DNA from: a virus
Virus record (IMG/VR): IMGVR_UViG_3300022468_000627
Location: 27,892-91,891 of that record
Direction: 5' to 3' (one strand)
DNA: 64,000 nt
The translations under genes were made by a program, and so were the position numbers. The notes under the pieces are model-generated. The model had not been told where the DNA came from, ran no database searches, and was given only the letters and a program-made list of their open reading frames with translations. Shown here piece by piece: positions 39,101-54,748 of this stretch; the stretch's first letter is position 1; the number at the start of each line of letters is the position of its first letter.

Positions 39101-40748
39101 ACTCCAGCGTGTAGTCGCCGCGCTGCAGGCCGATGGCGCGGACGCGGCGGATGGCGTCCTCGATGCCGACCTTGCCGAGCGAGCCCTGCCACTGGTCCTT
39201 GGCGCCCTGCTTGAGCGCCACGGACAGGGCCGCGTTGGCCTCCATCTCGCCCAGGGCCTGGCCTAGGATCTTCTGCGCGTCGCCGACCGCTTTGCGCCGG
39301 CGGCCGTTCAGCTCCTGCGCCACCTGCAGGTCCGCGCCGGTGGCGGCCTCGCCCAGCTCGATTTCCTTGGCGGCCTCCATCAGCTCCCGGGCCTCGCCCA
39401 GCGCCTCCTGGCTGGTCGCCATGTAGTGGTGCAGGTGAAATTCCTGCACGCCCTCGGTGATGCGCTCAGCGTCCTCGGGCAGATCCTGGTGGATTCGTCG
39501 CGCCAGCACCTGCGCAGCGCCGGCGATGCCCAGCACGTCCACGACCGAGCGATCCACCAGTGCCTCGCCGCCCACGGCCAGCGCCAGGCTGTTGATGCTG
39601 TTGTAGGCGCCGATGCCGATGTGCTTGCCCAAGGTCTCCTCGGGCCGGTCGCCCGCCAGCCGCTTGAACTCGGACAGGAAGGCTTGGGTCTGCGCCGTGC
39701 GCAGGTCGTTGTTCAGCTCCTCGGCCAGCTTGGCGTCATCGTCGGGGCTGGCGGTGTACTCCAGCACGAACGCCTTGGGCTCGGCCGCTGTGCTGTTGAT
39801 CTTGGCGGCCTGCTCGCGGGCCTTCTGCTGCACCTGCTTGAGCCGCTTGGCGGCCTTGAGCATGTCCACCGCCTTGCGGGTGTCGGCCAAGGTCGCCCGG
39901 GCGTCCGGCGCCGCTGGCTCGCGGATGCCCTCCAGTTCGTGCTGCAGCAGCTTGGCGGTCTCGCCGCGCTGCACGGCAGCCCGGCGCTGTCCCTCGGTCA
40001 TCTGAGCCTGCTTGGCCGCTTTCACCTTGTCCGCCTCAGCCTTGAGGTCGGCGTCGGTCAGGCCGGCGTCCTCGGCACGGCCCTTGAAGTCGGAGCTGAA
40101 ACCCAGGCCGCCGGACTTCTCTGGGATCGGCGCCAGGTCCTGCACGGACAGGGTTTCGGGGTCCTTGGCGTCGAGCGGAACCTCGCCAATCCCGGCCTCC
40201 ATGCGGCTCGCGTGGTCGGCCACCAGGCGCTGGCGCTGCATGTCCACGGCCTGCATGGCGCGCGCCAGGACGGTGTTGTGGTGCTTGACCCGCAGCTTGG
40301 CCTGGGCAGCGTCGGACAGGTGCGCGTAGTCCTGCTCGGGGAATTCGAGGTCTTTGGCCTCCCAGCCAAGGGACTGAGCCACGGTCTGCACAAACTCGCG
40401 CTCATGCTGGCGCTGCTGGGCGCGCAGGTCTTCCTTGGCCTTGTTCTTGGCCGCGACCACGCCGGCCGCCTTGTCTCGCTCGCGCTGGGCCTTGGCTTCT
40501 TCCTTCTTGGCCGCGCGCCGTTCTTCGGCTTCCTTCTTGTACTCGGATTCCTTGCGGACGTGGCGCAGCTTGAGGTAGTTCAGCTTGCCGCCGGCGCCGC
40601 CGATGACGTGGGCGCTGCCGTCAGGGTTTGGCTGGATCAGGACCGGCTGGCCCGGGCCGCTGTCGCCGTTGGGGTGAACGGTGATCCACCGGGCGTTTGG
40701 TGGCAAAGCGGCTTTCAGAAAGAGGACGGGGCGGACTTTGGGCAGCAT
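36180..40748 (-). CDS. Giant (1522 aa) helicase-containing protein, candidate virion-packaged effector
   Basis: Walker A AAFGTGSGKS (about nt 37653-37673), DExx YLTTDESQ, helicase-C blocks ASDAGATGMNIQ..QFDTPQTAMTHAQRQGRIFRTGQ. About 1000 aa of non-enzymatic N-terminal region. Leaderless-type motif h upstream. Confidence 0.85.
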   Translation of the reverse strand: MLPKVRPVLFLKAALPPNARWITVHPNGDSGPGQPVLIQPNPDGSAHVIGGAGGKLNYLKLRHVRKESEYKKEAEERRAAKKEEAKAQRERDKAAGVVAAKNKAKEDLRAQQRQHEREFVQTVAQSLGWEAKDLEFPEQDYAHLSDAAQAKLRVKHHNTVLARAMQAVDMQRQRLVADHASRMEAGIGEVPLDAKDPETLSVQDLAPIPEKSGGLGFSSDFKGRAEDAGLTDADLKAEADKVKAAKQAQMTEGQRRAAVQRGETAKLLQHELEGIREPAAPDARATLADTRKAVDMLKAAKRLKQVQQKAREQAAKINSTAAEPKAFVLEYTASPDDDAKLAEELNNDLRTAQTQAFLSEFKRLAGDRPEETLGKHIGIGAYNSINSLALAVGGEALVDRSVVDVLGIAGAAQVLARRIHQDLPEDAERITEGVQEFHLHHYMATSQEALGEARELMEAAKEIELGEAATGADLQVAQELNGRRRKAVGDAQKILGQALGEMEANAALSVALKQGAKDQWQGSLGKVGIEDAIRRVRAIGLQRGDYTLESVAGDTFLTIKAAGLDRLAKPVSRDDVEQVKRNLAIIRGDHDEDGWLPLGVANRPDLGMDVKPGVAPRLAEPFQPPGAPGSEAMAQAIKDYIGGRAADGDTPADIYADLLSFDMLQKVGDRRDEYMQVLEHIAPTRDERGKLVRAESRAGYFNDLADAFVQQRYGGERSALNSQQFKVDQRSVDALHRALSEHPEGVAAFKQLGELTPQDQRALREFFYRNVAKENPEQAAHRAELERLDGSEPERETTDMFGETAANPEWQEWKAQRDDVAGKMTAAGLDWNRYIDVMHGHEKAYEALQDMIKSNVARSFADNHNRLNPGRPIKIGRQVIRNNLNHLDAVDPAAREERMNRERELVDGLRERVQGRYASGAVSDKLDAARQQQEAFEQAQMGFFGADDAPPSEDAAPAALAGDERYTVGHVAERQIAGMMNQVGKNFKPGQQVKLWNPTMSGGKNYARQRLVKLVEANKRVVAAFGTGSGKSLLQMAAFTHLHGQGKAKRGLFLVPSIVQGQFSGEALRYLQPGKFNWHCEPGASREERIKAYKNPEHHFCVMTHQSFRDDMMHLGAQHAGISPAEMSDRLQAMAPAERKAWMRSIMDREGIDFDYLTTDESQYTLNRAGKENSGLANVVDALSEHTPYYVAASGDPVKNDASEVFDLMHKMDPGRYADRDAFMRRYGADTLASKDSLRREMARHVYPSKIDPDVRADRKESKVSLSKGQQDSLAELDKHFTSARIARMEGKVDVDAMKAISPASFEGVPEAEHQDVARQLQQSLGIMKSSAVQRVINTHPDNPLVDDVLNHASARKGKPGVVFAHNREAVKMLAERLEKAGHRVVTITGSDSGKDKERKRLLFNPEGGEPGADILVASDAGATGMNIQRGQWLYQFDTPQTAMTHAQRQGRIFRTGQKNDVELIDGVADHPEVHKARERLSKKYGLRELMTSSMEGLDDTGIAHFLKHRQVLQQDSQDALF

Positions 40749-40754
40749 CCGCCC

Positions 40755-40770
40755 ATCGTAGGGTCACGAC
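40755..40770 (-). promoter_or_regulatory. Conserved late-promoter-like motif (copy h)
   Basis: Minus strand GTCGTGAC CC TACGAT, then GGGCGG, then ATG 40748. Confidence 0.5.
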
Positions 40771-40771
40771 C

Positions 40772-41101
40772 TCAAAGCCCGCCCGCGTCCGGGTCCACCA
40801 GCCGGAACGTGCCGCCGCCGGCCAGGTCTTCGACCTCGCTGCCGCCCAGGTTGAAACTGGCGTTCTTGCGGTACTCCTCGACGGCCGCCGCCAAGGCCTC
40901 CTGCAGGTCGGCGTGGTGCGGCATGCGGGCGGTCACGTCGGTGTCGATGTGGTCGCCCAGCAGGTGCAGGTTGTCGCGGGTGTAGAAGCGCAGCAGGGCG
41001 CGCTTGACAAGGTACCAGTAGACCCCGAAGGCGCGGTACCGGCGGGGGTCATCCTGGAGCAGCTGCAGCGTGCTGGCCGCGAAGGTTTTCGGGTCGATCA
41101 T
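40772..41101 (-). CDS. Hypothetical protein
   Basis: 109-aa ORF. ATGA overlap with the stop of the 2065-aa gene. Confidence 0.6.
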   Translation of the reverse strand: MIDPKTFAASTLQLLQDDPRRYRAFGVYWYLVKRALLRFYTRDNLHLLGDHIDTDVTARMPHHADLQEALAAAVEEYRKNASFNLGGSEVEDLAGGGTFRLVDPDAGGL

Positions 41102-44100: not shown

Positions 44101-47100
44101 GATCAGGATGAAATCGTAGTCGTTCTGGCGCAGGTCGTGGTACTTGCGTTTTCGCTCGCTCGCCGAGTCGTCCTTGCCGATCAGCGAGCCGTCTTTGGCC
44201 CGGCTGAAATTCGCGCCGACGGTCAGCACGCGGGCGCCCGGGAACCAGGTCTCGGCCTCCTCAAACCAGTTGGCCAGCACCGACTTGGGCACCACGATGA
44301 TCGGGCGCTTGGCCTGGCCGTTGACCTTCGCCATGCGCGCCAGCAGCAGGCCGCCCAAGGTTTTTCCCAGGCCCACGTCGTCGGCCACGATGCCCTTGCC
44401 CAGCGCCAGGGACTTGCGCAGGCTCGACCAGCGCCAGTCGCGCACCGTGCGGTCGGCGGCCAGGCCGGGCACGTCGATGGGCGAATTGCTGAACTCGGGG
44501 GCCACGTAGCCCCGGAAGCTGCGGTTGTAGAGGTCTTCGACGCGGTCGCGGTGGGTGCTGCCGCACAGCCACTCCTTGAACTCCGCATTCATGGCCTCGA
44601 CGCGCGGCAGGTCCTCCTCCTTCCGAATGCCGGTGCGGTTGAGGTACTTGTCGATCAGCTTGGTGTCGCCGTACTGGTTGCCGCCAGCCACGTGGTACAG
44701 GCCGTCGGCGAACGTGATCTCGACGGGCGCTTGCTTCTTGGTCCAGTCATTGGCCTCCGGCCCATCGAACTGGCGCCAGTTGAGGTACGCGGCCAGGACG
44801 TCGGTGGGCACGAACGCGCTGTTCATCTGGAAATCGACGTCATCCAGCGACTTCGCGTCGATTGCCTTCTCCAGGCGCTCGACCTGCAGGCGGCGCTTGT
44901 CGGCCATGTCAGGCTCGGAGCCGGCCTCCAAGGCCGCCCGCGCAGCGTCCAGCTTGGGCCACAGCTCGCCGGTCAGGTAGGCGTCCATCGTGGTCCACTG
45001 GCCGCCGCCGGCGTAAGCGTAGCGCGGGTCGGCCGCCAGCTGGTCCAGCACCTCGTCGGCATTCTTGCCCAGGCGCTCGGACAGCTCGCCGGCCGTGAAC
45101 GTGCCGCTGTCGCGCTCCAGCGCCATGCTTTGGGCGGCGCTGTCGAACGTGCCCTCGGTCTTGCGCGTTCGCCCGGCCACCAGGTCGGACAGCTTGCCCT
45201 GGCGGTCCACGGCGCCGATCAGCGCGTACAGGCTCTTGTCGGCCATGGCGGCCGCCATCAGCTCGGGGTCGTCAGCCGGCACGCCGTGCTTCTCGACGTA
45301 GGCGCGAATGCGTGCCTCCAGCGCCGGGCGGTCAACGGCCTCCATGCCGGACGCCAGCCGGCCAATGTCGGCGGCCAGCTCCTGCGCCTGGCTGATCGAC
45401 TCGGTCTGCATGAACTCGTCGAGGCGGTGCCAGCGCGGCGGGTCGCCCTGCAGGATCAGGGTGACGCCATCCACCACCTTGGTGTCGCCCACCTTGGCGG
45501 CGTTGGCGTAGGGCCGGCGGAACGCTGCCGAGATGGCGCGCTCCTTGGCGGCCTCGTCGTCGCCCAGCGCCTCCAGCACCTGGTGCATGGACACGGGCGC
45601 TGTCTCGGCCGCCGGGCGGAACGCGGCGATCTCCTCGGGCACGCCCTGCATGGAGCCTTCGACCGTGATGTCGCTGCCCATGCCGGCCTTGGCGCGCCAG
45701 CCCTCGGTCATCGTGCCCAGCACGTTCTCGGCGCCGCGGCCCGTGAAGTAGCCGCCGGCCAGAAACTCCTCGTCCCAGACGCCCAGCTTCTGCAGCGTGG
45801 CCTGGTCAACCGTGCCCAGCGCGCCGGCCACGTCGTCTGGCCGCTTGCGGAAGTAGACGACGTCGGTCGTCACCTCGGTGTGCGAGTGCTCGAACGCCGT
45901 GTTGGGCATGCGCTGGGCGCCCAGGAATTCGCCCTTGCGCAGCAGGTTCTCGCGGAACGCCCGGGCCGACTTGCTGTCCATGATGCCGGTCGGCACCACC
46001 AGCGCCACCAGGCCGCCGGGCTTGCACTTGTCCAGCGCGGTGTCGGTGAAATACTGCTCGGCCGTGCTGATGTTGACCTTGTCGTCCTTCGCCAGGAAGC
46101 CGCGTGGGCCGTAAGGCGGGTTGCCGATGACCACGTCGAACTGGCGGTCATCGGTCGTGGCGAATCGCTCGAAGCCGGATGTGATGATCTCGTGTCGGTC
46201 GCCGTGCAGCGCGTGGGCCGCCTGGGCGCTGGTCGGGTCCAGCTCGACGCCGGTCACGCGCACGCCGGCCGGCGCCGTGTGCAGGAACACGCCGGTCGCG
46301 CAGCTCGGCTCCAGGGCTGTGCCGTGCTGGAAGCCCAGCGCCTGCAGCGCAGTCCACATGCCGCGCGCCACGTCGGGGTCGGTGTAGAACTCGTTCAGGC
46401 TGTCGCCACAGCCGCCGTTGCCGCTGTACTGGCGGAACTGCGCCAGATCGCCGGCGGTGAACGGGCCGCCCTCGGCCAGGCGCTCGACGACGGCGGCGTT
46501 GATGGCGCGGCGCTTGGCCTTGCTGGTGCCGGCGGCCACGCCGAACGGGGCCGCGGGCTCGTGGGCAACGGCTTGGGTCGGCGCGGGCTCGGGAGCCGGT
46601 GCCGGGGTAGGCTCAGGCGCTGCGGGCGCCCGGGCCTCGACGGGTTTGTTCTTGAGGTGCTTTTCCCGGATGAACCAGCCGCCCTGGTGGCGCATGGTGT
46701 ACGGGTCGATCTCCCGGGCCTGCGCTTCGGTCAGGTCGGTGCGCACGACGCCGCGCAGCACCTTGCCCTTCTTGGCGGTGCGGTACTCGACGAGCGGGAG
46801 GTCGGGCGCGGGCGCGGCCGCAGGAATCGGTTTTGCGCTGGGCTCGGGTTCCGCAACCGGTTTTGCGCTGGCGGAATCGGTTTTGGGCGCCTCGGGCGCC
46901 TGGCTGAACAGGTCGGCCTGCTTCTCGGCTGCGGGCTCGGCCTGGGCCGGCTTGGGCGCCGCGCCCAGCATCGCCCATACCGCCTCGGGCGTGGTCTTGC
47001 CCACCTCGGCCATCTTGGCGATCAGCTGCTGCTGTTGCCCCTCGGGTAGGCCAGCCAGGATCTTCGCCATGCCGGCCGGGCCGCCGTAGCGCCCCAGGAA

Positions 47101-47295
47101 CGTGTCGAGCTTGCTGCGCCGCTTTGCCGGCTCAGGCGCGGCGTGGTGGCCGCCGAACAGCGAATGCTGCTTGACCGCCAGCTTCTGGATGCGGACGTGG
47201 GGCTGCACGACAGTGCCGTCCTTGCGGACGTGGGCAGCCACGTGCACCGGGGCGTCGAACAGGGCGAGTTGGGATTTCGTGAAGAAAACGAGCAT
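41098..47295 (-). CDS. Giant (2065 aa) N6-adenine methyltransferase / SNF2-type helicase fusion (DarB-like), candidate virion-packaged anti-restriction protein
   Basis: SAM motif LEPSCATGVF, catalytic NPPY (nt 46111-46122), helicase motif I DDVGLGKT (GLGKT at 44359-44373), motif II QDEMHHQKN, motif III LTATPTKNSP, motif V/VI NATMAEGLN..EPATLQQRNGRGLRQGN. Confidence 0.9.
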   Translation of the reverse strand: MLVFFTKSQLALFDAPVHVAAHVRKDGTVVQPHVRIQKLAVKQHSLFGGHHAAPEPAKRRSKLDTFLGRYGGPAGMAKILAGLPEGQQQQLIAKMAEVGKTTPEAVWAMLGAAPKPAQAEPAAEKQADLFSQAPEAPKTDSASAKPVAEPEPSAKPIPAAAPAPDLPLVEYRTAKKGKVLRGVVRTDLTEAQAREIDPYTMRHQGGWFIREKHLKNKPVEARAPAAPEPTPAPAPEPAPTQAVAHEPAAPFGVAAGTSKAKRRAINAAVVERLAEGGPFTAGDLAQFRQYSGNGGCGDSLNEFYTDPDVARGMWTALQALGFQHGTALEPSCATGVFLHTAPAGVRVTGVELDPTSAQAAHALHGDRHEIITSGFERFATTDDRQFDVVIGNPPYGPRGFLAKDDKVNISTAEQYFTDTALDKCKPGGLVALVVPTGIMDSKSARAFRENLLRKGEFLGAQRMPNTAFEHSHTEVTTDVVYFRKRPDDVAGALGTVDQATLQKLGVWDEEFLAGGYFTGRGAENVLGTMTEGWRAKAGMGSDITVEGSMQGVPEEIAAFRPAAETAPVSMHQVLEALGDDEAAKERAISAAFRRPYANAAKVGDTKVVDGVTLILQGDPPRWHRLDEFMQTESISQAQELAADIGRLASGMEAVDRPALEARIRAYVEKHGVPADDPELMAAAMADKSLYALIGAVDRQGKLSDLVAGRTRKTEGTFDSAAQSMALERDSGTFTAGELSERLGKNADEVLDQLAADPRYAYAGGGQWTTMDAYLTGELWPKLDAARAALEAGSEPDMADKRRLQVERLEKAIDAKSLDDVDFQMNSAFVPTDVLAAYLNWRQFDGPEANDWTKKQAPVEITFADGLYHVAGGNQYGDTKLIDKYLNRTGIRKEEDLPRVEAMNAEFKEWLCGSTHRDRVEDLYNRSFRGYVAPEFSNSPIDVPGLAADRTVRDWRWSSLRKSLALGKGIVADDVGLGKTLGGLLLARMAKVNGQAKRPIIVVPKSVLANWFEEAETWFPGARVLTVGANFSRAKDGSLIGKDDSASERKRKYHDLRQNDYDFILISEPAFEEVDLDPETKERYYSDDFWVQRGESLGNAGDKRRKAIKERYEQHIAQREFSDRTDAIYFNELGADMLIQDEMHHQKNLYAARARFGEQPKFLGGQGLSNRALDFNLKTRWVRDNNGGKNVYGLTATPTKNSPLEIYSMLSHIAPEAFERIKIRNSEEFLDRFCEFKADKVLGTGGDIEDATVVSGFKNLDELREIMARYIDRRTADQVGLKLPERDDRLHLVDMSPAQQAVYAELRELAEESAGKKDATGDAHIFAIMDKMNKAALDLSLLDKAKYGGASSPKYAHLAKQCVEGGKDGGQIVFSEYIDSHDKIVAALVDAGFKREEIGVINAQVAGSAVKRQNIANAFNAGKLKVVVGNATMAEGLNMQKTTTDIHHMDVPWEPATLQQRNGRGLRQGNMNESLRIHTYLSKGSFDGYRYQAVAAKKDWQDLLWNGGDRVENLAREGSFSNEDMRIMLAADPEEARKKYAEDKASATARYDAGKRSDAQAEFVRFTEMSRSYGSLKNKNTTSAQRLRQKIEATKTSLFNNKYWSAKAALDSATDVLIHPQTGTVLTADVGLDFAKDGKMVVTGVNMKAGTVTMRRYADTSGGHKVTLPMSELSDAKPYDFDKNAEAEEVGKAMESAANEKLNSLTKWEDVKAMPSAVLEKNNDLIQRQIKDAKASYKGFHDLGDAYMVEKATGKIEKVPSYSTKDKHETHDYLLPTEAAKEKAIQAWMDARRGARISSRSVNRSKGRGPRSGGYDVLAAREYQGASYSDRHINPMKGLLDSLSGQRMYGVSSALEKEAKARLQDEQMQTIRRAKAGHEVLNALFPLAKLGGKAEGGYARDFKASYPKEALALAWARMRHLGELDDKVGTVGHDGYATGGENQTKHAALIRMARNSGHNDLAEAIAESGDRHGLSKNDEATLRAIAGHYSQSVRTLNLIKKVAGRMGILDQTVGQLRQYNLGGPFSAPSGYGYDPEGQRRAGRKLGDVIDEYLQAASARESTKEAA

Positions 47296-47341: not shown

Positions 47342-48558
47342 GCCGGCGGCGCCGTAATGCTGGCTGCAATTGCCTGGAGCGCCTTCTTGGGTGCGACGAA
47401 TTCCTTTTTGGCCCCCATGTCGGTGTGGCCAACGCGGATCAGGTCGGCGATGTGCGGCCGCACTGCGCGCGAGCTGATGCCGAACACCTTTGCGGCCGCA
47501 GGGATGAACCACTCCAGCCCAGCCGAGCCATCGCGCAGACCGAGCAGCTTGAGGTCGGCGTCCGAGGCCTCGCCGCCAGACAGCAGGCGATCGCGCAGAT
47601 TGCTCACCGCCCCAGCGTGGTCAGCAGCCGCCTTATCGTGGGTTGCACGTGTCTGCAGCGACTGGCTGGCAGCGTTGACCGCATCCTCGGGCTTGGCGTG
47701 GTAGTTCCCCAGCACCTCGCCGTTGACCTCGACGCCGTAGTGCCCACTGATCAGCCCCTTGCCGCGTCGCCATTTCGCGCCCGGGATGTCAGCCAGCAGG
47801 TGGTCGTGCTCGCCGGGCGGCGCAGGGCCCGCGCTCTCGCCCCCGAACAGGTCACGAGTGTCCTTCACCGGGTCCTTGCCGGCATACGGGCTCGGCCCCA
47901 TCGGCTTGCCGCTGCTGGCACCGCCGAACAGGCTCATCTGCCCGGGACCGCCAGGCGTGCCGTGGGCCGCCCGCCCGTGGTAGCCGCGCGCGTTGACGAT
48001 CCGGCCGCCGCGCAGGTACGGGCCGACGTAGCCCTTGAAGAACAGCACGACGGCGGGCTGGGCCTTGATCATGGCCGGCGCGTTGCGCGTGGCGCGAACC
48101 TTGGCGATGAACTCGGCCACCGGCATAGCCGTGATGCCGCCGAAGAATCGCGGATCGTCGTAGTGCTCCAGGTAGGCGTCGCGGGCCTCGTCCATGCTGG
48201 CGAAGTTGATCATGCACTTCTGCTCGTCGGGCGTGTCCCACTGTTTGCGCTTCATCTGCTGCACGACGTAAACCTCGGGCGCGTCCGGGTAGCTGCCAAT
48301 GAACACGTCCACCGGGTCACCATCCACTCCAAGCGTGCCCAGGATCTCGCCGTAGGCGTAGCGAAACACCGTGCGCCAAGCCTTGCCGGTCTCGTCGACG
48401 CCCTCGCGCACCGTGCCCTCGGGATGCTCGATGGCAATGGTCAGGCCGTGCCAGTCCTGGCGCAGCTTGGGGTAGTCGCCGGACTTCGCCTGCTCGGGCG
48501 TCGGGTCGCCGCCGATCATGGTGCGGGTGGCCGGATGGGATTTCAGGAGGATGATCAT
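47335..48558 (-). CDS. Inorganic-pyrophosphatase-like domain protein with unknown C-terminal half
   Basis: 407 aa. IAIEHPEGTVREG..YAYGEILGTLGVDGDPVDVFIG..DEQKCM resembles family I PPase blocks (E.P.G.., YG.iP.T..DGDP.DV). ATGA overlap with the MuF stop. Confidence 0.7.
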   Translation of the reverse strand: MIILLKSHPATRTMIGGDPTPEQAKSGDYPKLRQDWHGLTIAIEHPEGTVREGVDETGKAWRTVFRYAYGEILGTLGVDGDPVDVFIGSYPDAPEVYVVQQMKRKQWDTPDEQKCMINFASMDEARDAYLEHYDDPRFFGGITAMPVAEFIAKVRATRNAPAMIKAQPAVVLFFKGYVGPYLRGGRIVNARGYHGRAAHGTPGGPGQMSLFGGASSGKPMGPSPYAGKDPVKDTRDLFGGESAGPAPPGEHDHLLADIPGAKWRRGKGLISGHYGVEVNGEVLGNYHAKPEDAVNAASQSLQTRATHDKAAADHAGAVSNLRDRLLSGGEASDADLKLLGLRDGSAGLEWFIPAAAKVFGISSRAVRPHIADLIRVGHTDMGAKKEFVAPKKALQAIAASITAPPAS

Positions 48559-49712
48559 TCGCGGTCTTTCTCGCCCTGGGCGAGCTGGGCGCGGATCCAG
48601 TCGCCGAACTCGGCGCTGTCACCTGGCCGGTCGGTGACGGTGGGCACCCAACGCCCCCGGCAATGCGGGTGCACCAGCCCGGCAGGCACGGTCCACATTT
48701 CGTCCGCCTCGCGCTCGACGAAGGCGTTGCCCACGCGCTTGCGCGGGCTGGCGCTGCGCCCGATGTTGTTCTTCCCCGCCCAAATTTGAGTGTCGGGGTC
48801 CTTGTGCACCATGCCCGGGTCCACCACGGTGACGACCATGCCGTCGATCTTGCGGCAGAACGCGCAGGCGTTCCGGTACTGCTCGACGCGCTTCACCTTG
48901 GTGCCGGCCGGCAGGCTGGAGATGTAGCCCTGGGTCTGGGCTTCGCCCGCTTCGGTGACGGCGATGCGCCGCCAATCGCGGTTGAGCGTGCCGAAGGCGT
49001 CGAGCAGCTTGGTCTCCAGCGACGAGCCAGGGCCCTGCACGCCCAGCGCGCGCTGGGTGACGTGCTCGGCGATGACGCCACGCATGGCGTGCCGCGCGCT
49101 CTCGGCCAGGTGACGCACGTTCTCGGCGCAGCGCTGGGCGGCAAAGTCCATCATCGCACGCTGGGCCTGGGTGGCGCCGAATGCGGCCGCGACCGCCTCG
49201 GTGGTGCCAGGCATCGCCATGATCATGGCGTCGGCCTGCTTGGCGTCAACCTCGCTCATGGCGGCCTGCACGCGACCCATGATGCTCGACCGCGCCGACA
49301 GCCATTCGGCCTCGGTGCGCATGTCCTCGGGCGGCAGGTAGCGCTGCGCCAGGTAGTCCACCGCCAGCATGTGGTCGTCGAGCGTCCACTCGGCCGGCGG
49401 CAGGTGCTCCAGGTACAGCTTGACCAGCGACTTCTCGGCCTCGTTCCAGCGCTCCATGACGCCAGCCGGTCGGGCGATGCGCTCACCGGCCGTGTGCCGG
49501 TGGCCTTCTGTCCACGCCAGCAGCTCAGTGCGGAACGCATCGAGGCGCGCCAGGCCGCGCTGGGTGAACAGCTCGACCAGGCGGGCGATCAGCGGGCTGT
49601 CCATCGGCGCCCAGATACCGTCGTCGTGGTCGTGCCCGGCCTTGCACAGGTACTCCAGCGCGGCGTTCGTGCGCGGCTCGTCGAGGTCGATGATGTCGAT
49701 GAATAGGCCCAT
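48555..49712 (-). CDS. MuF / SPP1 gp7-like head morphogenesis protein
   Basis: 385 aa. RRIAVTEAGEAQTQGY and C-terminal AGLVHPHCRGRWVP match the MuF family R..TE and HPNCRC-type blocks. Confidence 0.8.
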   Translation of the reverse strand: MGLFIDIIDLDEPRTNAALEYLCKAGHDHDDGIWAPMDSPLIARLVELFTQRGLARLDAFRTELLAWTEGHRHTAGERIARPAGVMERWNEAEKSLVKLYLEHLPPAEWTLDDHMLAVDYLAQRYLPPEDMRTEAEWLSARSSIMGRVQAAMSEVDAKQADAMIMAMPGTTEAVAAAFGATQAQRAMMDFAAQRCAENVRHLAESARHAMRGVIAEHVTQRALGVQGPGSSLETKLLDAFGTLNRDWRRIAVTEAGEAQTQGYISSLPAGTKVKRVEQYRNACAFCRKIDGMVVTVVDPGMVHKDPDTQIWAGKNNIGRSASPRKRVGNAFVEREADEMWTVPAGLVHPHCRGRWVPTVTDRPGDSAEFGDWIRAQLAQGEKDRE

Positions 49713-49928: not shown

Positions 49929-49934
49929 GCCCCC

Positions 49935-50740: not shown

Positions 50741-51337
50741 TCAGAGCTTGTCCAGCCCCGTGAGGTACGTTGTAGAAAACAGACGTTCCAGCACCGGATG
50801 CTTGGCGCCCATGGACTGCACCACTTGGCGCGCGTCGTCGAAATACTTGCGCTTGCGGGCTGCGTCCCAATCCGGCGGCGACGCCACCAGGTCGCGCAGG
50901 TTCGCCGTCTTGTCGGCCATCTTCACAGCGGCCGCGCGCGGGCTCATCTTCGCCGCGTGGGCGGCCTGCCATGCGGCCTTGCCGCCAGGACCGAAGTCCG
51001 CCGGGTTGGTCAGCTCGGCCACCAGATCGGCGACGTCGTGCCCAAACTCCGCGACGAGGTTCGCGTGCGTGGCACCCGTGTCCTCCATCGTGTCATGCAG
51101 CAGGGCGGCCTGCAGGGTGACGTGATCGGTGATGCCGGCCTCGTCGTGCAGGATGCGGGCCACGGCGCGCGGGTGCTCGATGTAGGGGACCAGCGGGGCG
51201 CCGGGCTTGCCCTTGCGGTACTGGCCGGCGTGGGCCTTGTCGGCGTAGCGGTCGGCATTGCGGACGTGGGGCGAGACGTAGACGCCATCGCGGCGGGTGT
51301 GCCCCCGAACCTGGATCGACTTGAACAGGAGGATCAA
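50741..51337 (-). CDS. Small alarmone hydrolase (RelA/SpoT-type HD domain) with a 28-aa N-terminal shared motif
   Basis: AHAGQYRKG..PYIEHPRAVARIL and AALLHDTMEDT are the RSH hydrolase His and HD..ED blocks. The only usable start is TTG 51337 (TTGA overlap with the upstream stop, AGGGGG 6 nt upstream). The track's ATG 51511 extension is Arg-rich off-frame-type sequence. Confidence 0.8.
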   Translation of the reverse strand: MILLFKSIQVRGHTRRDGVYVSPHVRNADRYADKAHAGQYRKGKPGAPLVPYIEHPRAVARILHDEAGITDHVTLQAALLHDTMEDTGATHANLVAEFGHDVADLVAELTNPADFGPGGKAAWQAAHAAKMSPRAAAVKMADKTANLRDLVASPPDWDAARKRKYFDDARQVVQSMGAKHPVLERLFSTTYLTGLDKL

Positions 51338-51561: not shown

Positions 51562-53003
51562 CACGCAACCCTCCGAAACAACAATGCCATTGTAGCCGCT
51601 TGATCGGATTTGATCAAAGTCTTGTCCTGGCTGCCGTTGCTTTTCGACCACGCATCGTCGTAGATCGCCTTCTGGCGCTTCAAGGCCTCGTAGTACGACC
51701 GGTGGTCATCGTCCGACCAGCTGTCGCCAGGCTCGGGCTCGCCGTACTTGCCTTGCAGCGACCGCGTGATTTCGTAGTCCTTGTGGCCCTTCTCCTTCGC
51801 CAGGGTCATCGCCTTGGTGTGGATCTGCAGCTCGGCCACCATGCCGTTGGGCAGCTTCACGAACGCCATGAGGTCGCGGTAGCCCTCGGCGGTCGGCTTC
51901 GCAAACCGGTTCTTGGGCTTCTGGGCGATCTCCAGGCCGGCGGCTTTCATGTGCTCCAGCGCCTGCTTGACGTGGCCCATGGTGGGCACGCTGATCGTGC
52001 CGCGCACGATGTCGCGCAGCTGCGACCAGTCGCCCTTGTAGTCGGCGTCGACCTTCTCCTTGGCTCGCTTCTCGCCCTTGAGTGGCGCAATGAACAGGAA
52101 GCCGTCGCCGTTCTCCCACTGCTCGGGGGTGATCTGCTCGGGCTTCATCCCGGTCTTGAGGCCCATGGCCTGCTGCACCTTACCCAGCATGCCCCGGAAC
52201 TGCTCCAGGCCCTCGGTGCCCTTCTGCACCAGCTCGTCCCAGCTCTGGGCGGGCTGGTTGACCTTGTCCGGCAGCGCCTCGATCGTGGCCTTGTCGAACA
52301 GCGACGCGGCATCGACCGGCGCCGGCTGGGCCTGCTCCTGGGCGCCCTGCTCGGGCTGGGCGTCATGCGGGCTGGCGTCGGGTGCGCCGTCGCCCTGCCA
52401 GTGGTGCGTGATCTTGTCGTGGGGCACGCGGTGCTCGCCGCCCTTGGGGTCGCGCACTGTGACGCCGTGCTGGCCGGCAGACAGAACCTGGCCGTGGCCG
52501 CGATGCTCGCCGTTCTCGTAGCCGATGTGCTGGCCTGCCTGGGCCGGCGGGCCGCCGATGTCGGTGCTCACCCAGCGCGTGGTCTGCACGCCGTTCTTGT
52601 CGGTGACCTTCTTCTGCTGCAGGCCAGGGCCGGGCGCCGGGCCCGCCTTGAGAAACAACACCGGGCGCCGCCCGAATGCTTTTGCCACCATGGGGTCGTC
52701 CTTGGATTCGTTGGGGGTGGCCACGAAGCGACGACGGCCGCTGGCGTCCTGCACCAGCATGCCGTCCTCGCCGTGGTCGATGACGTCGTAGCGCTGCGGG
52801 ATCCGCTGCTTGTGGCCCAGCACCTTGTCCCAGCGGACTTTCTGGTGCTGGCCGTCGATCTTGACGGTGACGCCGTGGCGGCCGTGCGCGGTCACCTCGC
52901 CGGTGCACGGCTGGCCGCCATGGTGCACGTACAGGTGGTCACCCACCTCGACATCGCCGCGCGGCTCGGGCTCTTTCTGGGGCTTCGGGGGCTTGAAGGT
53001 CAT
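51561..53003 (-). CDS. RelA/SpoT-like nucleotidyltransferase (small alarmone synthetase / toxSAS-like) with N-terminal duplicated His-rich SH3-like modules
   Basis: 480 aa from ATG 53003 (ATGA overlap with the portal stop). The C-terminal half has PLKGEKRAKEKV, LRDIVRGTISV, AEGYRDLMAFV, VAELQIHTKAM, GHKDYE in the order of the RelA_SpoT synthetase blocks. Confidence 0.8.
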   Translation of the reverse strand: MTFKPPKPQKEPEPRGDVEVGDHLYVHHGGQPCTGEVTAHGRHGVTVKIDGQHQKVRWDKVLGHKQRIPQRYDVIDHGEDGMLVQDASGRRRFVATPNESKDDPMVAKAFGRRPVLFLKAGPAPGPGLQQKKVTDKNGVQTTRWVSTDIGGPPAQAGQHIGYENGEHRGHGQVLSAGQHGVTVRDPKGGEHRVPHDKITHHWQGDGAPDASPHDAQPEQGAQEQAQPAPVDAASLFDKATIEALPDKVNQPAQSWDELVQKGTEGLEQFRGMLGKVQQAMGLKTGMKPEQITPEQWENGDGFLFIAPLKGEKRAKEKVDADYKGDWSQLRDIVRGTISVPTMGHVKQALEHMKAAGLEIAQKPKNRFAKPTAEGYRDLMAFVKLPNGMVAELQIHTKAMTLAKEKGHKDYEITRSLQGKYGEPEPGDSWSDDDHRSYYEALKRQKAIYDDAWSKSNGSQDKTLIKSDQAATMALLFRRVA

Positions 53004-54748
53004 GGCTCGAATTTGAAGACGGGCAGGCCGAATGCCTTGGCCATGTCGGCCGGCTCGGACTCGGCGGGCCGGTCGGGCTGCTGGGCGCCAGCGTCGGGCC
53101 GCCCGAAGTCCTGACCGTCCTCGCCGCCGAAGTCCTGGCCGTCGCCGCCCTGCTCGTCCGGCCCGGGACCGCCGCTGGGCTGCTGGCCGGGCTGGCCGAA
53201 GTCTTCTTGCTGGGGCATGGCCTCCTGCTGCCAGACGCCGACCAGCGACGGGTTCAGCGGCGCGTCGCCCCACTTGCCATCGGCCTTTTCGAGCCCATCC
53301 TCGGCACGCATCTCGTTGACGGTCAGCGTCAGCTTCTTGCGCTCGAAAACCTGCTTCTCGTCTTCCTCGTCGAGGCCGGTCCACTGGAACTCGTACTTGT
53401 CGGAGAACTCGCCAATCACGTACTGGCTCATCGTGTCTTCGAGGTAGGCCAGCAGCGGGCGCAGGCCCTTGTCCTTGGAGAATGCCAGCTTCTCCTCGGT
53501 GTCGTTGCCGCTGAGCGAGCTGGTGCCCGACGTGAAGCTCTCGAAGTTGATTTCGTCAGGTGCGATGCCGTAGATCGCGCAAATGATCGACCCCAGGAAG
53601 GTCATCCATTTGCTGAACATAATTTCGCTGGCCTGCTCGCCGAAGCTCTCGAATTTGGCCGCCGACTCCTGGTCTTTCGACACCATCACCGGCAGCGTCC
53701 AGGCATTGTTGATGCCCTTGACCATGCCGTTCCAGTACCGCTTGAACGCCGAAATGTCCTCGTCGGCGTAGTTGCCGAACAGGTTCAGCACGCCACGCGG
53801 CATGGCGTTGCTGTCGAAGAACTTGGTGTTGTAGGTGAAGGCGTTCAGGAACCCCGTCACCACGCGGATCAGCAGCTCGGTCTCAGCCAGGCCGTAGCCG
53901 CCGGCGATCACGTCGGTGCGCGGGTTGCGCGGCACGTAGATCAGGTCGTCGTAGCTGTAGGCCGTGCGGATCTGGCCCTGCACCACCTGCAGCGCGAAAA
54001 TCTCGTCCTCGCCGCGGTAGCCCTCCTCCGAGCACAGCCGGATGGTGGCGCCGTCCACGGCGTAGACGCCATCCAGGCCCAGCGACTTGTCGCGCTTCCA
54101 CTCGGTCTCGATCGCCATGCTGTCCATGGTCAGGCTGTCGCGCACCAGCTTCTTCATCAGGTTCGGGAAGCTGTCGCGCTTGAGGCGCATGCGCTGGCGC
54201 GGCCGGGTCTCCCAGCCCGAGTTGAGCACGAACGACTCCAGCAGCTTCATGGTCTGCTGCTCGTTCTCGTCCACGTTCTCGGCCTGCTCCTTGCTGGCGA
54301 TCTTGAAGCCCAGGCCCTTGCCGCCCTTCTGCGGCCGGCAGAACCGCTCGACCTGGCGCTGTCGGGTCATGATGACGGCGTTCAGGATGGGGGTCTGCTC
54401 GACCATGGCGCGCATGGCGTCGAACGAGAACTGCCCGGGGCGCTCGAACCAGTCGCCGTTGACGTTGATCTGCAGGTCGTCGATCCACACCGACTGCATG
54501 CCGCGCTCGCCGGCTTTCTTCTCGCGCCCGCCTGGGAACGGGATGATGTTGCCGCGCTGGGCCTTGGCGAATGCCTGGTCCTGCAGGTCCTGGTTGATGT
54601 AGTCGATGATCGGCTGGATGTTCGACGCCGGGATCAGGTCGGACAAAGCGCGCGGCATCGCGGATTTTTGCAGTTCCGCCATGGCCTCCTGCCGCTCGTC
54701 GGCGGGGGCGCGCGGGTCAGCGAGTACAGAGCGGGCAGCGTCGGTCAT
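53000..54748 (-). CDS. Portal protein
   Basis: 582-aa ORF at the head of the head-morphogenesis operon, with the size and acidic C-terminus typical of portals. Motif l upstream. Confidence 0.8.
   Translation of the reverse strand: MTDAARSVLADPRAPADERQEAMAELQKSAMPRALSDLIPASNIQPIIDYINQDLQDQAFAKAQRGNIIPFPGGREKKAGERGMQSVWIDDLQINVNGDWFERPGQFSFDAMRAMVEQTPILNAVIMTRQRQVERFCRPQKGGKGLGFKIASKEQAENVDENEQQTMKLLESFVLNSGWETRPRQRMRLKRDSFPNLMKKLVRDSLTMDSMAIETEWKRDKSLGLDGVYAVDGATIRLCSEEGYRGEDEIFALQVVQGQIRTAYSYDDLIYVPRNPRTDVIAGGYGLAETELLIRVVTGFLNAFTYNTKFFDSNAMPRGVLNLFGNYADEDISAFKRYWNGMVKGINNAWTLPVMVSKDQESAAKFESFGEQASEIMFSKWMTFLGSIICAIYGIAPDEINFESFTSGTSSLSGNDTEEKLAFSKDKGLRPLLAYLEDTMSQYVIGEFSDKYEFQWTGLDEEDEKQVFERKKLTLTVNEMRAEDGLEKADGKWGDAPLNPSLVGVWQQEAMPQQEDFGQPGQQPSGGPGPDEQGGDGQDFGGEDGQDFGRPDAGAQQPDRPAESEPADMAKAFGLPVFKFEP

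Follow-up and report, generated by a model that had tools for sequence, protein, structure and literature searches.

A short peptide recurs at the ends and domain joints of enzymes that this phage most likely carries inside its head. Sequence evidence suggests that it is a composite tag, combining an inferred head-docking strand, inferred maturation-protease cut sites, a small basic β-ribbon, and motifs that resemble host sliding-clamp-binding sequences. The window analysed is the whole 64,000-nucleotide stretch, positions 27,892 to 91,891 of IMG/VR record IMGVR_UViG_3300022468_000627. The strand (h-h-[LF]-F-h-K/R) is found at the N-termini of the HD hydrolase, the InPase, the DarB-like methylase-helicase and the helicase, at internal joints, in C-terminal tails, and at the portal C-terminus.

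Occurrence and conservation of the peptide

The preliminary description reported one module at N-termini and domain boundaries of the cargo proteins. That observation is confirmed, and it extends well beyond the window. All of the instances listed there translate as written, on the minus strand, but some details require correction. The hydrolase starts at a TTG at 51337 that overlaps the TGA of the upstream small ORF, so its N-terminus is M-ILLFKS. The methylase and hydrolase cores share 10 of 17 identical residues, not the 12 claimed. The InPase internal copy (AVVLFFKG-YVGPYLRGGRIVNARGYHGR...GQMSLFGG) is not a decayed copy but a well-conserved variant found in 47 of 120 InPase homologues, and in 22 others the canonical hairpin occupies the same position. 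MALLFRRVA at the synthetase C-terminus and LPVFKFEP at the portal C-terminus belong to conserved tails, the portal consensus being DMAK[AS]FGLPVF[RK]IE[AP]-COOH in 120 portals.

The strand is more frequent than expected by chance. There are 6 distinct strand sites in the portal-to-protease block, and counting overlapping regular-expression matches gives 10 observed against about 0.5 expected from shuffles, although the expression was written post hoc. Independent support comes from orthologues at 50-85% identity, in which the N-terminal strand is present in 13/17 helicases, 8/13 methylases, 7/10 InPases and 5/5 HD hydrolases; most misses are miscalled starts. These counts over orthologues are not phylogenetically independent. 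The strand was found at none of the N-termini of scaffold (0/13), protease (0/13), capsid (0/15), portal (0/7), Ulx (0/11) and MuF-like (0/13) proteins, and in only 3/202 unassigned ORFs. A profile built from only the two window copies found 446 proteins at E<=1e-3 among 1.84 billion representatives, 32 of them at E<=1e-10, and about 30 of the top 150 carry the full module at residues 1-40. Codon usage differs between the copies, so the repeat is at the protein level and is not a DNA repeat.

The genes lie in a block between the portal and maturation-protease genes. The block is absent from the related phages Dolphis, ST4 and L005, which have the order portal, MuF-like, protease. Its products are InPase (PF18823), a DarB-like methylase-SNF2 helicase with an Ulx-like neighbour, an HD hydrolase and a RelA/SpoT-like protein, which are the domains of virion-delivered polyvalent proteins (PMC5512222). 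InPase homologues in 460 phage records are often annotated as minor, internal head or virion proteins.

Four conserved elements

Features of the tag and related motifs in the window. All are on the minus strand. A slash within a sequence marks a predicted cut, and pLDDT values are from AF2 models.
Coordinates	Protein	Feature	Observations
47272..47295	DarB-like methylase-helicase	N-terminal strand MLVFFTK/S; predicted cut after K7	Conserved in about 30 representative proteins as M-h-h-h-F-x-K-S; pLDDT below 50 for residues 1-5
47254..47271	Methylase-helicase	QLALFD; matches QLxLF and would be N-terminal after the predicted cut; overlaps the start of the ribbon's first strand	L12 and F13 invariant, Q9 at least 90% conserved
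47176..47253	Methylase-helicase	Basic β-ribbon APVHVAAHVRKDGTVVQPHVRIQKLA	Predicted strands 12-19 and 33-40, pLDDT 87-95; profile hits
47149..47172	Methylase-helicase	KQHSLFGG, clamp-binding-like motif in a linker	pLDDT about 62
46900..46923	Methylase-helicase	KQADLFSQ, second linker LF motif	Orthologues carry [ST][LP]DLF[AS] here; region has pLDDT below 50
51317..51337	HD (ppGpp-hydrolase-like)	N-terminal strand (M)ILLFK/S, TTG start at 51337	Present in 5/5 orthologues
51257..51316	HD hydrolase	β-ribbon IQVRGHTRRDGVYVSPHVRN	
48538..48558	InPase protein	N-terminal strand MIILLK/S	Strand expression matches 73/120 homologues against 3% of random windows; pLDDT below 50 for residues 1-10
48031..48078	InPase protein	Internal joint PAMIK/A-QP-AVVLFFK/G: cut motif, strand, second cut motif	P161, M163 and K165 at least 90% conserved; pLDDT below 50 for residues 169-175
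47971..48030	InPase protein	Variant (type B) hairpin YVGPYLRGGRIVNARGYHGR	Positionally interchangeable with the canonical hairpin; small hairpin predicted at 181-188
47920..47943	InPase protein	GQMSLFGG, clamp-binding-like motif in the linker	Homologue consensus G-Q-[ML]-S-L-F-G; pLDDT about 60
47839..47859	InPase protein	TRDLFGG, second linker LF motif	Low-pLDDT region
52641..52691	RelA/SpoT-like protein	Internal joint MVAK/AFG-R-RPVLFLK/AG	The PHB04 orthologue reads VTK/SLGADGRVLLFFK/AD
52566..52613	RelA/SpoT-like protein	Divergent hairpin-like KKVTDKNGVQTTRWVS	Conserved as RKQIVDRTGRKQTKWVR in PHB04
51564..51617	RelA/SpoT-like protein	C-terminal tail LIK/SDQAATMALLFRRVA-COOH	Tails of the same type in 4 orthologues
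40707..40748	1522-aa helicase	N-terminal strand MLPKVRPVLFLK/AA	16/17 orthologues after correcting miscalled starts
40665..40694	Helicase	ARWITVHPNG, conserved element after the strand; a different motif from the hairpin	
37911..37937	Helicase	QAQMGFFGA, internal clamp-binding-like motif before the helicase core	Q-[AS]-Q-[MLI]-G-[FLM]-F in 21/21 aligned orthologues, next to a variable acidic linker
36183..36206	Helicase	C-terminus QDSQDALF-COOH, clamp-binding-like	17/19 relatives end in x-[SGAD]-L-[FLI]-COOH
53003..53047	Portal	C-terminal tail DMAK/AFGLPVFKFEP-COOH	Follows a hypervariable acidic linker; kept in cargo-less phages and at the C-terminus of a portal-cargo fusion
49632..49712	MuF-like protein	N-terminus MGLFIDIIDL...EYLCK/AGH; possible propeptide, weaker evidence than the other parts	Conserved M-x-LF-h-D-h and h-x-K-[AS] in 13 orthologues
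34175..34648	Scaffold protein	Seven h-x-K-[AS]-h motifs: LAKAL, MAKSF, MLKSL, LAKAL, LIKSL, MAKSI, FAKAL	7 observed against 0.20 expected, P<2e-4; sites conserved in 14 orthologues
33936..33971	Capsid protein	AELQK/ALTAGYG; predicted maturation cut between K27 and A28	Hypervariable N-terminus gives way to a conserved region exactly here in 16 orthologues
34963..35130	Maturation protease	LRK/AI, FAK/SW and FAK/ALEAGYG; the third begins a segment that mimics the capsid-protein N-terminus in the alignment	3 observed against 0.21 expected, P=8e-4; weak hit to PHROG 752, major head protein

The first element, the strand, ends in K-[AS] in about 95% of cases, against a background of 16-22%. The same motif ends the portal and cargo C-termini: 64/120 have a hydrophobic run in the last 16 residues, against 9.6% of random windows.

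The second element is an h-x-K-[AS]-h motif next to the strand, which is 35-fold enriched in the scaffold. PAMIK/[AS] is nearly invariant at the end of the InPase domain. The motif is read here as the maturation-protease cleavage site; however, it is short, and chance matches occur at about 0.09 per 100 residues, so individual sites in the cargo proteins may not be real. The protease has no Pfam hit, and its assignment as HK97-type rests on PHROG 1028 and on sequence motifs seen by eye.

The third element is the basic β-ribbon, V-x-V-x-x-[HY]-x-R-x-DG-x-x-V-x-x-[HY]-x-R. It has no match in Pfam, NCBIfam or PDB. It also occurs as tandem repeats in more than 100 small, apparently secreted proteins.

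The fourth element comprises Q-[LM]-[SD]-L-F motifs in disordered linkers and at the helicase C-terminus. The sequence logo has Q at 57-58% (background 3-4%), then L/M, then S/D, then L-F, which equals QLxLF / QLSLF (PMC4549789) and agrees with the bacterial β-clamp-binding consensus at all five positions. Q.[SD]LF occurs 3 times in the cargo proteins against 0.06 expected, and 0 times in the other 55 ORFs. More broadly, the motif is restricted to cargo, with 38 matches in 58,000 residues against 0 in 28,000 residues of core proteins.

Natural fusions carry the same elements. P0017 and P0039 have the module at internal domain boundaries, and the L053 portal consists of the portal body, then FSK/A plus the hairpin, then a PBECR3 domain, then LAK/AIGLPPVLRIE-COOH.

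Inferred packaging, processing and clamp docking

The preliminary description proposed three possible roles without choosing between them: a capsid- or portal-targeting signal, a prohead-protease site, or docking to the host clamp. This interpretation is partly supported, as the evidence suggests that the roles belong to different parts of the module. Packaging and protease processing fit the strand plus the adjacent h-x-K-[AS] motif, which recurs in the scaffold, in the protease, at the capsid-protein propeptide junction and in the portal tail; the likely cut site, however, is the K-[AS] dipeptide flanking the strand and not the HxRxDG core. Clamp docking fits only the Q-[LM]-[SD]-L-F elements. 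The HxRxDG...PHVR core is a separate, self-contained β-ribbon that also occurs in non-phage, apparently secreted repeat proteins; it cannot be capsid-specific and is unlikely to be a phage-specific targeting signal.

Precedents exist for such signals. The HK97 capsid protein is cut at K103/S104, with a scaffold strand (K92-G97) docked on the P-domain sheet just upstream (PMC10275583). The N-terminal 30 residues of P1 DarB are a capsid-targeting sequence, and T4 IPIII also has one (PMC9024508). However, a 6-7 residue N-terminal peptide may be too short to target a protein, since 9 residues were not enough in P1, and the P1 DarB N-terminus shows no clear similarity and has no QxxLF motif. In addition, QLALF overlaps a confidently predicted strand and may not be free to bind a clamp, and it is not obvious why a pyrophosphatase would need one. 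The motif itself is new, whereas the kinds of signal to which it is assigned are known.

Of the alternatives, the one that survives best, though it remains doubtful, is that the QxSLF motifs are further phage-internal interaction motifs, for example for the portal, scaffold or ejection machinery. They co-occur with the packaging tag in the same linkers, non-DNA enzymes also carry them (for example the C-terminal extension of the InPase protein), and the portal linker has its own conserved [ED]D[FY]G repeats. Against this are the agreement of the logo with the independent clamp consensus, the placement at the extreme C-terminus of a helicase, which is typical of clamp partners (PMC4549789), and the absence of the motifs from the core head proteins.

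It is also possible, but unlikely, that the strand and its flanking K-[AS] are only protease recognition and cleavage elements, the substrate lying as an extended strand in the protease groove, and that cargo enters the head by another route, such as binding MuF, the portal or DNA. The K-[AS] motif is shared with the scaffold, capsid protein and protease, strands at internal joints are flanked by K-[AS] on both sides, and Iyer et al. predicted that polyvalent proteins are processed (PMC5512222). On the other hand, terminal half-sites would yield only peptides of 6-12 residues, yet they are strongly conserved; scaffold and capsid-protein sites lack the run of 4-5 hydrophobic residues; C-terminal tails place the strand after the K-[AS] and end in R-x-P-x-S rather than in another site; and the portal tail is retained at the extreme C-terminus even when a cargo domain is inserted upstream.

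Less likely still is that strands of different proteins (portal tail, cargo C-tails, cargo N-termini) pair with one another, linking separate cargo proteins into a non-covalent chain that substitutes for a covalent polyvalent protein. Split and fused versions of the same joints exist (P0017 and P0039 compared with separate genes, and the L053 portal fusion), and the strands are predicted to be free. There is no direct evidence for such a chain, however; all these strands are basic, so pairing would bring like charges together, only the MuF-like N-terminus being acidic, and cleavage at the flanking K-[AS] would dissolve it. Similarly improbable is that all LF-containing elements, including the N-terminal strands, are β-clamp-docking motifs and that the module has nothing to do with the capsid. 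Q-[LM]-[SD]-L-F does match the clamp consensus, and other mobile elements, including IS transposases and phage Mu MuC, use the clamp; but the strands lack the Q and have a different consensus (h-h-F-h-K-[AS]), the same strand ends the portal, a structural protein that stays in the virion, also in cargo-less phages, and the enrichment of K-[AS] in the scaffold is unrelated to clamps.

Pairing of the N- and C-terminal strands of each cargo unit as a β-clasp closing an insertable domain, or their being integral strands of the adjoining enzyme fold, is rejected as very unlikely: InPase and the RelA/SpoT-like unit each have a strand at both ends, but with a 120-sequence alignment AF2 leaves both InPase strands unstructured and unpaired (pLDDT below 50) while the domains score above 90, no intramolecular pairing is predicted for the methylase-helicase strand either, and the same strand occurs on four unrelated folds. 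An artefact of chance similarity, low-complexity composition or a DNA-level repeat at gene starts is refuted, despite the shortness of the motifs and the post hoc first expressions, by the conservation, profile and codon-usage results above and by composition-preserving shuffles, which do not reproduce the counts.

The explanation preferred here, held with moderate confidence, is a T4-CTS-like and HK97-like packaging-and-processing tag on accessory 'polyvalent-type' cargo enzymes, plus clamp-docking motifs. The analysis establishes that the elements exist, are conserved and specific, and are predicted to be disordered, whereas docking, cleavage and clamp binding are inferred from sequence and predicted structure only. 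In this view the free strand, which the portal tail also carries, would dock the protein inside the assembling procapsid by β-strand addition, in the way the HK97 scaffold strand adds to the capsid P-domain sheet. The HK97-type maturation protease would cut at the flanking K/[AS], clipping the docking peptides and separating fused domains, with predicted new ends at capsid protein A28, portal K571, InPase S7 and K165/A166, methylase S8 and helicase A13. This is the logic of the T4 capsid-targeting sequence, with a different sequence and a different protease specificity. The basic β-ribbon would stay on the mature N-terminus, where binding to a polyanion or to DNA is possible. The Q-[LM]-[SD]-L-F motifs would bind the host β sliding clamp after ejection and so tether the enzymes to DNA.

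Genomic context of the presumed cargo genes

The window is a phage or prophage sequence of 67% G+C that, on the minus strand, is syntenic with Bordetella phage vB_BbrM_PHB04 at about 75% nucleotide identity. It encodes a P4-type tyrosine integrase (Arm-DNA-bind_3 plus Phage_integrase), and this relative of PHB04 is therefore probably temperate or a prophage. Identical proteins occur on metagenomic contigs of about 92 kb. In the related phages Dolphis and ST4, and in the IMG/VR locus L005, the portal gene is followed directly by the gene for the MuF-like protein, a small protein and then the protease. The enzymes encoded between portal and protease in the window are therefore an accessory insertion in the head module.

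Features of the window and of three other loci. Portal-to-capsid genes are in minus-strand order. L003, L026 and L053 are loci from the genomic comparisons, numbered on their own sequences.
Feature	Coordinates	Strand	Basis or remark
P4-type integrase	223-1494	minus	Left end of the window
Portal	53000-54748	minus	
Portal linker (residues about 517-567)	53048-53200		Hypervariable, acidic, Gly/Gln-rich; three conserved [ED]-D-[FY]-G repeats upstream of the terminal DMAKAFGLPVF motif
RelA/SpoT-like protein (synthetase)	51561-53003	minus	Pfam 26.5 bits against a 27-bit cutoff
Conserved 75-aa ORF	51337-51561	minus	Begins MIFIENEGALFRGPARAWPKEVW...; no family match
HD_4 hydrolase	50745-51337	minus	TTG start overlapping the upstream TGA
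ORF-free gap of about 1 kb	49727-50740		No convincing ORF; no Rfam hit
MuF/SPP1-gp7-like protein	48555-49712	minus	Weak hits only
InPase (PF18823) plus C-terminal domain	47335-48558	minus	PF18823, E=3e-39
C-terminal domain of the InPase protein (residues about 250-407)	47335-47808		Predicted alpha/beta, pLDDT about 95
DarB-like N6-methylase/SNF2 helicase, 2065 aa	41098-47295	minus	Pfam N6_Mtase/Eco57I plus SNF2/Helicase_C; tblastn match to P1 DarB
Ulx-like protein	40772-41101	minus	PHROG 1629, E=8.6e-17
Helicase, 1522 aa	36180-40748	minus	PHROG 62
Two small ORFs	35715-36014, 35954-36193	minus	
Maturation protease	34705-35616	minus	PHROG 1028 (head maturation protease), E=1.6e-35
C-terminal part of the protease (residues about 198-303)	34705-35025		Resembles the N-terminal segment of the capsid protein
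Scaffold	34064-34708	minus	
Capsid protein	32583-34037	minus	
GTCGTGA upstream of the helicase gene	40764-40770	minus	
GTCGTGA upstream of the MuF-like gene	49728-49734	minus	
GTCGTGA upstream of the portal gene	54764-54770	minus	
GTCGTGA upstream of the protease gene	35633-35639	minus	
L003, 122-aa protein	1272-1640		Strand and hairpin; encoded next to the terminase gene
L026, protein	3845-6931		Strand and hairpin
L053, 988-residue portal	16478-19444		Contains a PBECR3 RNase-like domain

The domains encoded in this block are those of the polyvalent proteins that Iyer et al. predicted to be packaged and injected with the DNA (PMC5512222). InPase homologues in 460 cultured-phage records are often annotated as minor head, internal head or virion proteins. 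That the window's own proteins are packaged is inferred from this context, and no virion proteomics for PHB04 was found in the literature searched. The C-terminal domain fused to InPase is predicted with confidence but matched no family, and homologues swap it for other C-terminal domains, including ART-PolyVal PF18760 and GNAT. The 75-aa ORF, lying between a RelA/SpoT-like gene and an HD-hydrolase gene, could encode a regulator or an antitoxin-like partner. At the position equivalent to the ORF-free gap PHB04 encodes a NinI-like Ser/Thr phosphatase. The gap may hold a decayed gene; a search of the window against Rfam gave no hits anywhere. The GTCGTGA elements lie about 16-22 nt upstream of the ATG of their genes. 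These starts lack an obvious Shine-Dalgarno sequence, and the element may be a late-promoter element or a translation signal.

Four recurring sequence elements

The recurrence reported in the preliminary description was confirmed, and every instance listed there translates as written. Two minor corrections are needed. The methylase and hydrolase cores share 10 of 17 identities rather than the 12 claimed, and the hydrolase N-terminus, read from its TTG start, is M-ILLFKS. Codons differ between the copies, so the similarity is at the protein level, which rules out a DNA-level repeat or cassette boundary. There are six distinct strand sites in the block; counting overlapping regex matches gives 10 observed against about 0.5 expected by shuffling, although the regex was written post hoc. 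The independent test is conservation in IMG/VR and GenBank relatives. The N-terminal strand is present in 13/17 helicases, 8/13 methylases, 7/10 InPases and 5/5 HD hydrolases, and most misses are miscalled starts. It is absent from the N-termini of scaffold (0/13), protease (0/13), capsid protein (0/15), portal (0/7), Ulx (0/11) and MuF-like protein (0/13), and occurs in only 3/202 unassigned ORFs. Two of those three, in L003 and L026, are further proteins carrying both the strand and the hairpin described below. The L003 protein starts MKALALFFKSHIDTFTRKDGSVVGAHDDKRQ, which is the strand followed by the hairpin, and shows the tag on a gene outside the portal-to-protease block. A profile built from only the two window copies (methylase residues 1-41, hydrolase residues 1-32) was run against 1.84 billion representative proteins and found 446 hits at E≤1e-3 and 32 at E≤1e-10. 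A tblastn search of cultured phages with the methylase N-terminal peptide found only PHB04.

The first element is a strand of the form h-h-[LF]-F-h-[KR]. At N-termini it reads M-h-h-h-F-h-K-[AS], and at internal joints and C-termini it is preceded by [ML]-x-K-[AS]. In 120 InPase homologues the N-terminal strand regex (consensus M-I-h-F-x-K-[AS]-H-P) matches 73, against 3% of random windows, and the domain ends in a nearly invariant P-A-M-I-K-[AS] followed by the strand. In 64 of the 120 there is a hydrophobic run in the last 16 residues, against 9.6% of random windows, and typical tails end in M-T-K-S-I-V-F-L-R-x-P-x-S. The portal ends in D-M-A-K-[AS]-F-G-L-P-V-F-[RK]-I-E-[AP] in 120 homologues, following the hypervariable acidic linker, and this tail is also present in cargo-less phages. 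AlphaFold2 with a 120-sequence alignment models the InPase domain and the C-terminal domain mostly at pLDDT above 90, but leaves both strands (residues 1-10 and 169-175) below 50 and unpaired. The methylase N-terminus behaves the same way. The strands therefore behave as free linear motifs that are not part of a fold and do not form an intramolecular clasp. A signal peptide or N-degron was rejected by reasoning only, since the strand is too short for a signal peptide and the initiator Met is expected to be retained.

The second element, h-x-K-[AS]-h, was recognized while the joints were being aligned, because [ML]-x-K-[AS]-h recurs in the classical substrates of a maturation protease. The scaffold has seven copies in 214 residues, against 0.20 expected from composition-preserving shuffles (P<2e-4), and the protease has three against 0.21 expected (P=8e-4). 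All other window proteins pooled have 0.09 per 100 residues. The scaffold sites are conserved in 14 orthologues, including sites that sit in otherwise variable acidic linkers. In 16 capsid proteins a hypervariable N-terminus gives way to conserved sequence exactly at E-L-Q-K/A-L-T-A-G-Y-G, where the slash marks the inferred cleavage position. The protease carries F-A-K/A-L-E-A-G-Y-G followed by a segment that mimics the capsid-protein N-terminus: its C-terminal part (FAKALEAGYG-TD..GGAA..QSLD) resembles the conserved capsid segment (ELQKALTAGYGTD..GG..IQSLD), which suggests that the protease is tethered by capsid-protein mimicry. The HK97 capsid protein is cut at K103/S104 (PMC10275583). From these observations, which concern motif presence and conservation only, h-x-K/[AS] is inferred to be the cleavage site of this protease. 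The protease itself had no Pfam hit at E<0.01, and its conserved DIDH and PSVGG motifs were seen by eye; its assignment to the HK97 (S78/U35) family is likewise an inference. The same motif is found in P-A-M-I-K/A at the end of the InPase domain, in V-A-K/A-F before the synthetase strand, in L-I-K/S-D before the synthetase C-terminal tail, and in M-A-K/A-F in the portal tail. The predicted cut positions are K27/A28 in the capsid protein; K23, K69, K91, K106, K123, K160 and K176 in the scaffold; K165, K200 and K211 in the protease; K571/A572 in the portal; K6/S7 in the HD hydrolase; K6/S7, K165/A166 and K175/G176 in the InPase protein; K7/S8 in the methylase; K12/A13 in the helicase; and K108/A109, K119/A120 and K465/S466 in the synthetase. 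The N-terminal strands themselves end in K-[AS] in about 95% of cases, against a 16-22% background.

The third element is a hairpin. AlphaFold2 models methylase residues 12-40 as a two-stranded beta-ribbon (strands 12-19 and 33-40, pLDDT 87-95). In the profile search most of the top 150 hits match only the hairpin part, and more than 100 of them are small proteins of 80-600 residues, most with an N-terminal hydrophobic segment that looks like a signal peptide. They carry 2-6 tandem copies of v-x-V-x-G-[YH]-x-R-x-[DN]-G-T-x-V-x-P-[HY]-x-R, often followed by NNWSTxGNxNPYTG. This widespread family, with units of the form VxVxGYxRKDGTYVxPHxRSxPDGNxxNNWSTxGNxNPYTG, includes the proteins numbered P0004, P0009, P0016, P0020, P0021, P0029 and P0034, more than 100 others, and the loci L024, L025 and L028. 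Some hairpin arrays are fused to eukaryote-like protein kinases (P0012, P0018 and P0026). No curated domain or known structure covers the hairpin or the module. Pfam at permissive E-values, NCBIfam and PHROGs gave nothing for the module, the small hairpin proteins or the linker regions; a PDB sequence search with a 46-sequence hairpin profile gave nothing below E=0.29; a Foldseek search of the PDB with the methylase N-terminal model gave nothing at E≤0.001; a cluster look-up returned no names; and a literature search for the hairpin sequence returned no papers. In InPase homologues a variant (G-P-Y-L-R-G-G-K-x-V-N-x-x-G-Y-Q-G-R, 47 proteins) and the canonical form (G-Y-T-K-K-D-G-T-F-V-x-x-H-E-D-K-R, 22 proteins) occupy the same position. 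The hairpin is thus a general, self-contained unit, and its HxRxDG core was rejected as a phage-specific targeting signal. Because it is basic, binding to a polyanion or to DNA is possible, but this is speculation.

The fourth element comprises the Q-[LM]-[SD]-L-F motifs. Across 88 LF sites in module-bearing proteins and 115 in InPase homologues, Q occupies the first position in 57-58% (background 3-4%), L/M the second and S/D the third, and G/D/A follows. This equals the bacterial beta-clamp-binding consensus QLxLF, with full consensus QLSLF (PMC4549789). In the window QHSLF, QADLF, QMSLF and RDLF lie in regions with pLDDT from below 50 to 62. QAQMGFF is present as Q-[AS]-Q-[MLI]-G-[FLM]-F in 21/21 aligned helicase orthologues, beside a variable acidic linker. 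The helicase ends in QDALF-COOH, and 17/19 relatives end in x-[SGAD]-L-[FLI] at the C-terminus. QLALF would be near the new N-terminus of the methylase after the predicted K7/S8 cut, but it is an exception in that it overlaps a predicted strand. Q.[SD]LF occurs 3 times in the window's cargo proteins against 0.06 expected, and 0 times elsewhere. Across loci, cargo orthologues carry 38 Qx[SDGANT][LM]F in 58,000 residues, core head proteins carry 0 in 28,000 and other ORFs carry 5 in 42,700, although these counts are not phylogenetically independent.

The elements also occur in natural fusions. Proteins that carry the full module at residues 1-40 have varied downstream domains, namely methylase/SNF2, LPD1, LPD3, PBECR3 and InPase. 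The fusion protein P0017 is InPase, then MVK/A-LGLVLFIK/S-QLSLFD plus hairpin plus QPSLF, then a zincin-motif protein. P0039, of 1874 residues, has three strand-plus-hairpin joints between its domains and lies next to terminase and portal genes. The top 120 portal homologues are all about 580 residues and showed no fusions, but one was found by genomic context in the same contig as P0039 (locus L053). This portal consists of the portal body, the acidic linker, G-G-F-S-K/A-H-I-S-G-Y-T-K-R-S-G-A-F-V-A-P-H-E-D-K-R-P, a PBECR3 domain, and then Q-Q-P-L-A-K/A-I-G-L-P-P-V-L-R-I-E-L-P-E-V-E at the C-terminus. A cargo domain has therefore been inserted between two K-[AS] motifs, with the hairpin at its N-terminal side, and the portal tail motif is kept at the very C-terminus. 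This is what a joint serving processing, plus a terminal docking peptide, would look like. The downstream 173-aa gene encodes the same SH3-like domain that forms the N-terminus of the window's RelA/SpoT-like protein.

Inferred mechanism and comparison with known systems

The presence, conservation and predicted disorder of these elements come from the analysis itself, whereas packaging, docking, cleavage and clamp binding are inferred. In the proposed mechanism the free strand docks cargo, and the portal tail, to a core component of the procapsid by beta-strand addition. The maturation protease would then cut at h-x-K/[AS], clipping N- and C-terminal docking peptides, excising internal strands and separating fused domains. 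After ejection, the Q-[LM]-[SD]-L-F motifs would tether the methylase-helicase, the helicase and the InPase protein to the host sliding clamp. The elements are considered real and functional with high confidence. Confidence is moderate that K-[AS] is the protease site, and about even both for the strand as an encapsidation or docking signal and for clamp binding by the LF motifs. The interpretation in the preliminary description, which raised a packaging signal, a prohead-protease site or clamp docking as roles of the recurring module, is partly supported; these roles are inferred here for separate elements.

Other explanations were considered. That the strand and its K-[AS] serve only in protease recognition does not explain the conserved terminal half-sites or the extra hydrophobic run. 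An intermolecular chain of paired strands stays possible but unsupported. The proposal that everything is clamp-binding fails for the strand, which lacks the Q and also ends the portal. A clasp between N- and C-terminal strands, or the strand as part of the enzyme fold, is contradicted by the AlphaFold2 models, and chance or a DNA repeat is refuted.

The inferred logic is that of the T4 capsid-targeting sequence of the internal proteins IPI-III and Alt (the IPIII sequence is cited in PMC9024508). In both cases a short N-terminal peptide is found on otherwise unrelated proteins that are, or here are presumed to be, internal to the head. In T4 the peptide ends at the consensus site of the prohead protease and is presumably removed after incorporation. 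There is no sequence similarity between the two. The T4 protease cuts after [LI]-x-E, and no [LI]-x-E pattern is seen in the consensus h-h-F-h-K-[AS]. The tag described here also occurs at C-termini, at internal joints and on the portal.

The window's methylase-helicase is a homologue of P1 DarB (29% identity over about 1300 residues) with an Ulx-like neighbor. In P1 the first 30 residues of DarB direct packaging, and residues 6-10 (MGVFR, hydrophobic-F-basic) are needed (Gonzales et al. 2022, PMC9024508). The P1 N-terminus (MNKLSMGVFRCSSV...) has no clear alignment to MLVFFTKSQLALFD, and the resemblance of MGVFR to LVFFTK is only loose. The P1 study found no consensus among its Dar proteins, whereas here four cargo families share one. 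P1 DarB has no QxxLF motifs. No DarA or Hdf homologue was identified in the window, in the absence of a specific search.

The precedent for the proposed docking is HK97, where scaffold (delta) domain residues K92-G97 add a strand to the capsid P-domain sheet a few residues upstream of the K103/S104 site cut by the maturation protease (PMC10275583). The HK97 strand is part of the capsid protein's own scaffold domain, while the strand described here sits on separate cargo proteins and on the portal, with a docking site that remains hypothetical.

The clamp-binding motif QL[SD]LF / QLxLF is found in Pol II, Pol IV, UmuC, MutS, Hda and IS transposases (PMC4549789). The putative motifs described here share the five-residue consensus, the placement in disordered linkers and at an extreme C-terminus, and the use by a mobile genetic element. 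They differ in occurring in several copies per protein and in being present on a pyrophosphatase-domain protein.

The polyvalent proteins of phages and conjugative elements (Iyer et al. 2017, PMC5512222) have the same domain repertoire (InPase, methylase-helicase dyad, RelA/SpoT, LPD1/LPD3, PBECR3) and the same location near packaging genes, and the same delivery with the DNA and proteolytic processing were predicted for them. LPD1, LPD3 and PBECR3 are carried by module-bearing relatives, and the RelA_SpoT match in the window is borderline. That paper proposes zincin-like metallopeptidases as the processing enzymes and, in the text searched and read, describes no junction peptide, hairpin or clamp motif. 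Polyvalent proteins have two to fifteen disparate domains in one polypeptide. In the window the methylase-helicase and the InPase protein with its C-terminal domain fit this description, while the domains are otherwise mostly split into separate genes, each carrying the tag, and are fused in relatives such as P0017, P0039 and the L053 portal.

Capsid-targeting peptides, maturation-protease sites and clamp-binding motifs are all known kinds of signal. Three things appear not to have been described, namely this particular tag shared across cargo families and the portal, clamp motifs on presumably ejected phage proteins, and the hairpin repeat family. This judgement rests on the sections of PMC5512222 that were read and searched, on sequence-string and clamp-motif keyword searches of the literature that turned up no description, and on the absence of any curated family or solved structure.

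Implications for the packaging of polyvalent proteins

A more far-reaching reading, which is doubtful on present evidence, links two claims. The strand would be a portable, general encapsidation tag that docks by beta-augmentation on a core procapsid component, is shared by the portal tail and all cargo, and is clipped at h-x-K/[AS] by the maturation protease, so that phage polyvalent proteins would be true polyproteins processed inside the head. That trimming would expose canonical QL[SD]LF motifs, and the ejected methylase-helicase, helicase and associated enzymes would then load onto the host beta sliding clamp on or near the incoming DNA. This would be a clamp-tethered anti-restriction and take-over toolkit delivered with the genome.

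How large polyvalent effector proteins are recognized for packaging into phage heads, and how they are processed, is largely unknown, although packaging signals are known for T4 and for P1 DarB. The tag makes concrete predictions about new protein termini, packaging and DnaN binding. A shared, short tag with a paired protease site would give a testable rule for predicting virion cargo from sequence alone, offer a handle for loading foreign proteins into phages for delivery, and provide an alternative to the proposed metallopeptidase processing of polyvalent proteins. Clamp-binding motifs on ejected enzymes would add a new class of clamp clients, and would also suggest how DarB-like anti-restriction enzymes stay on DNA.
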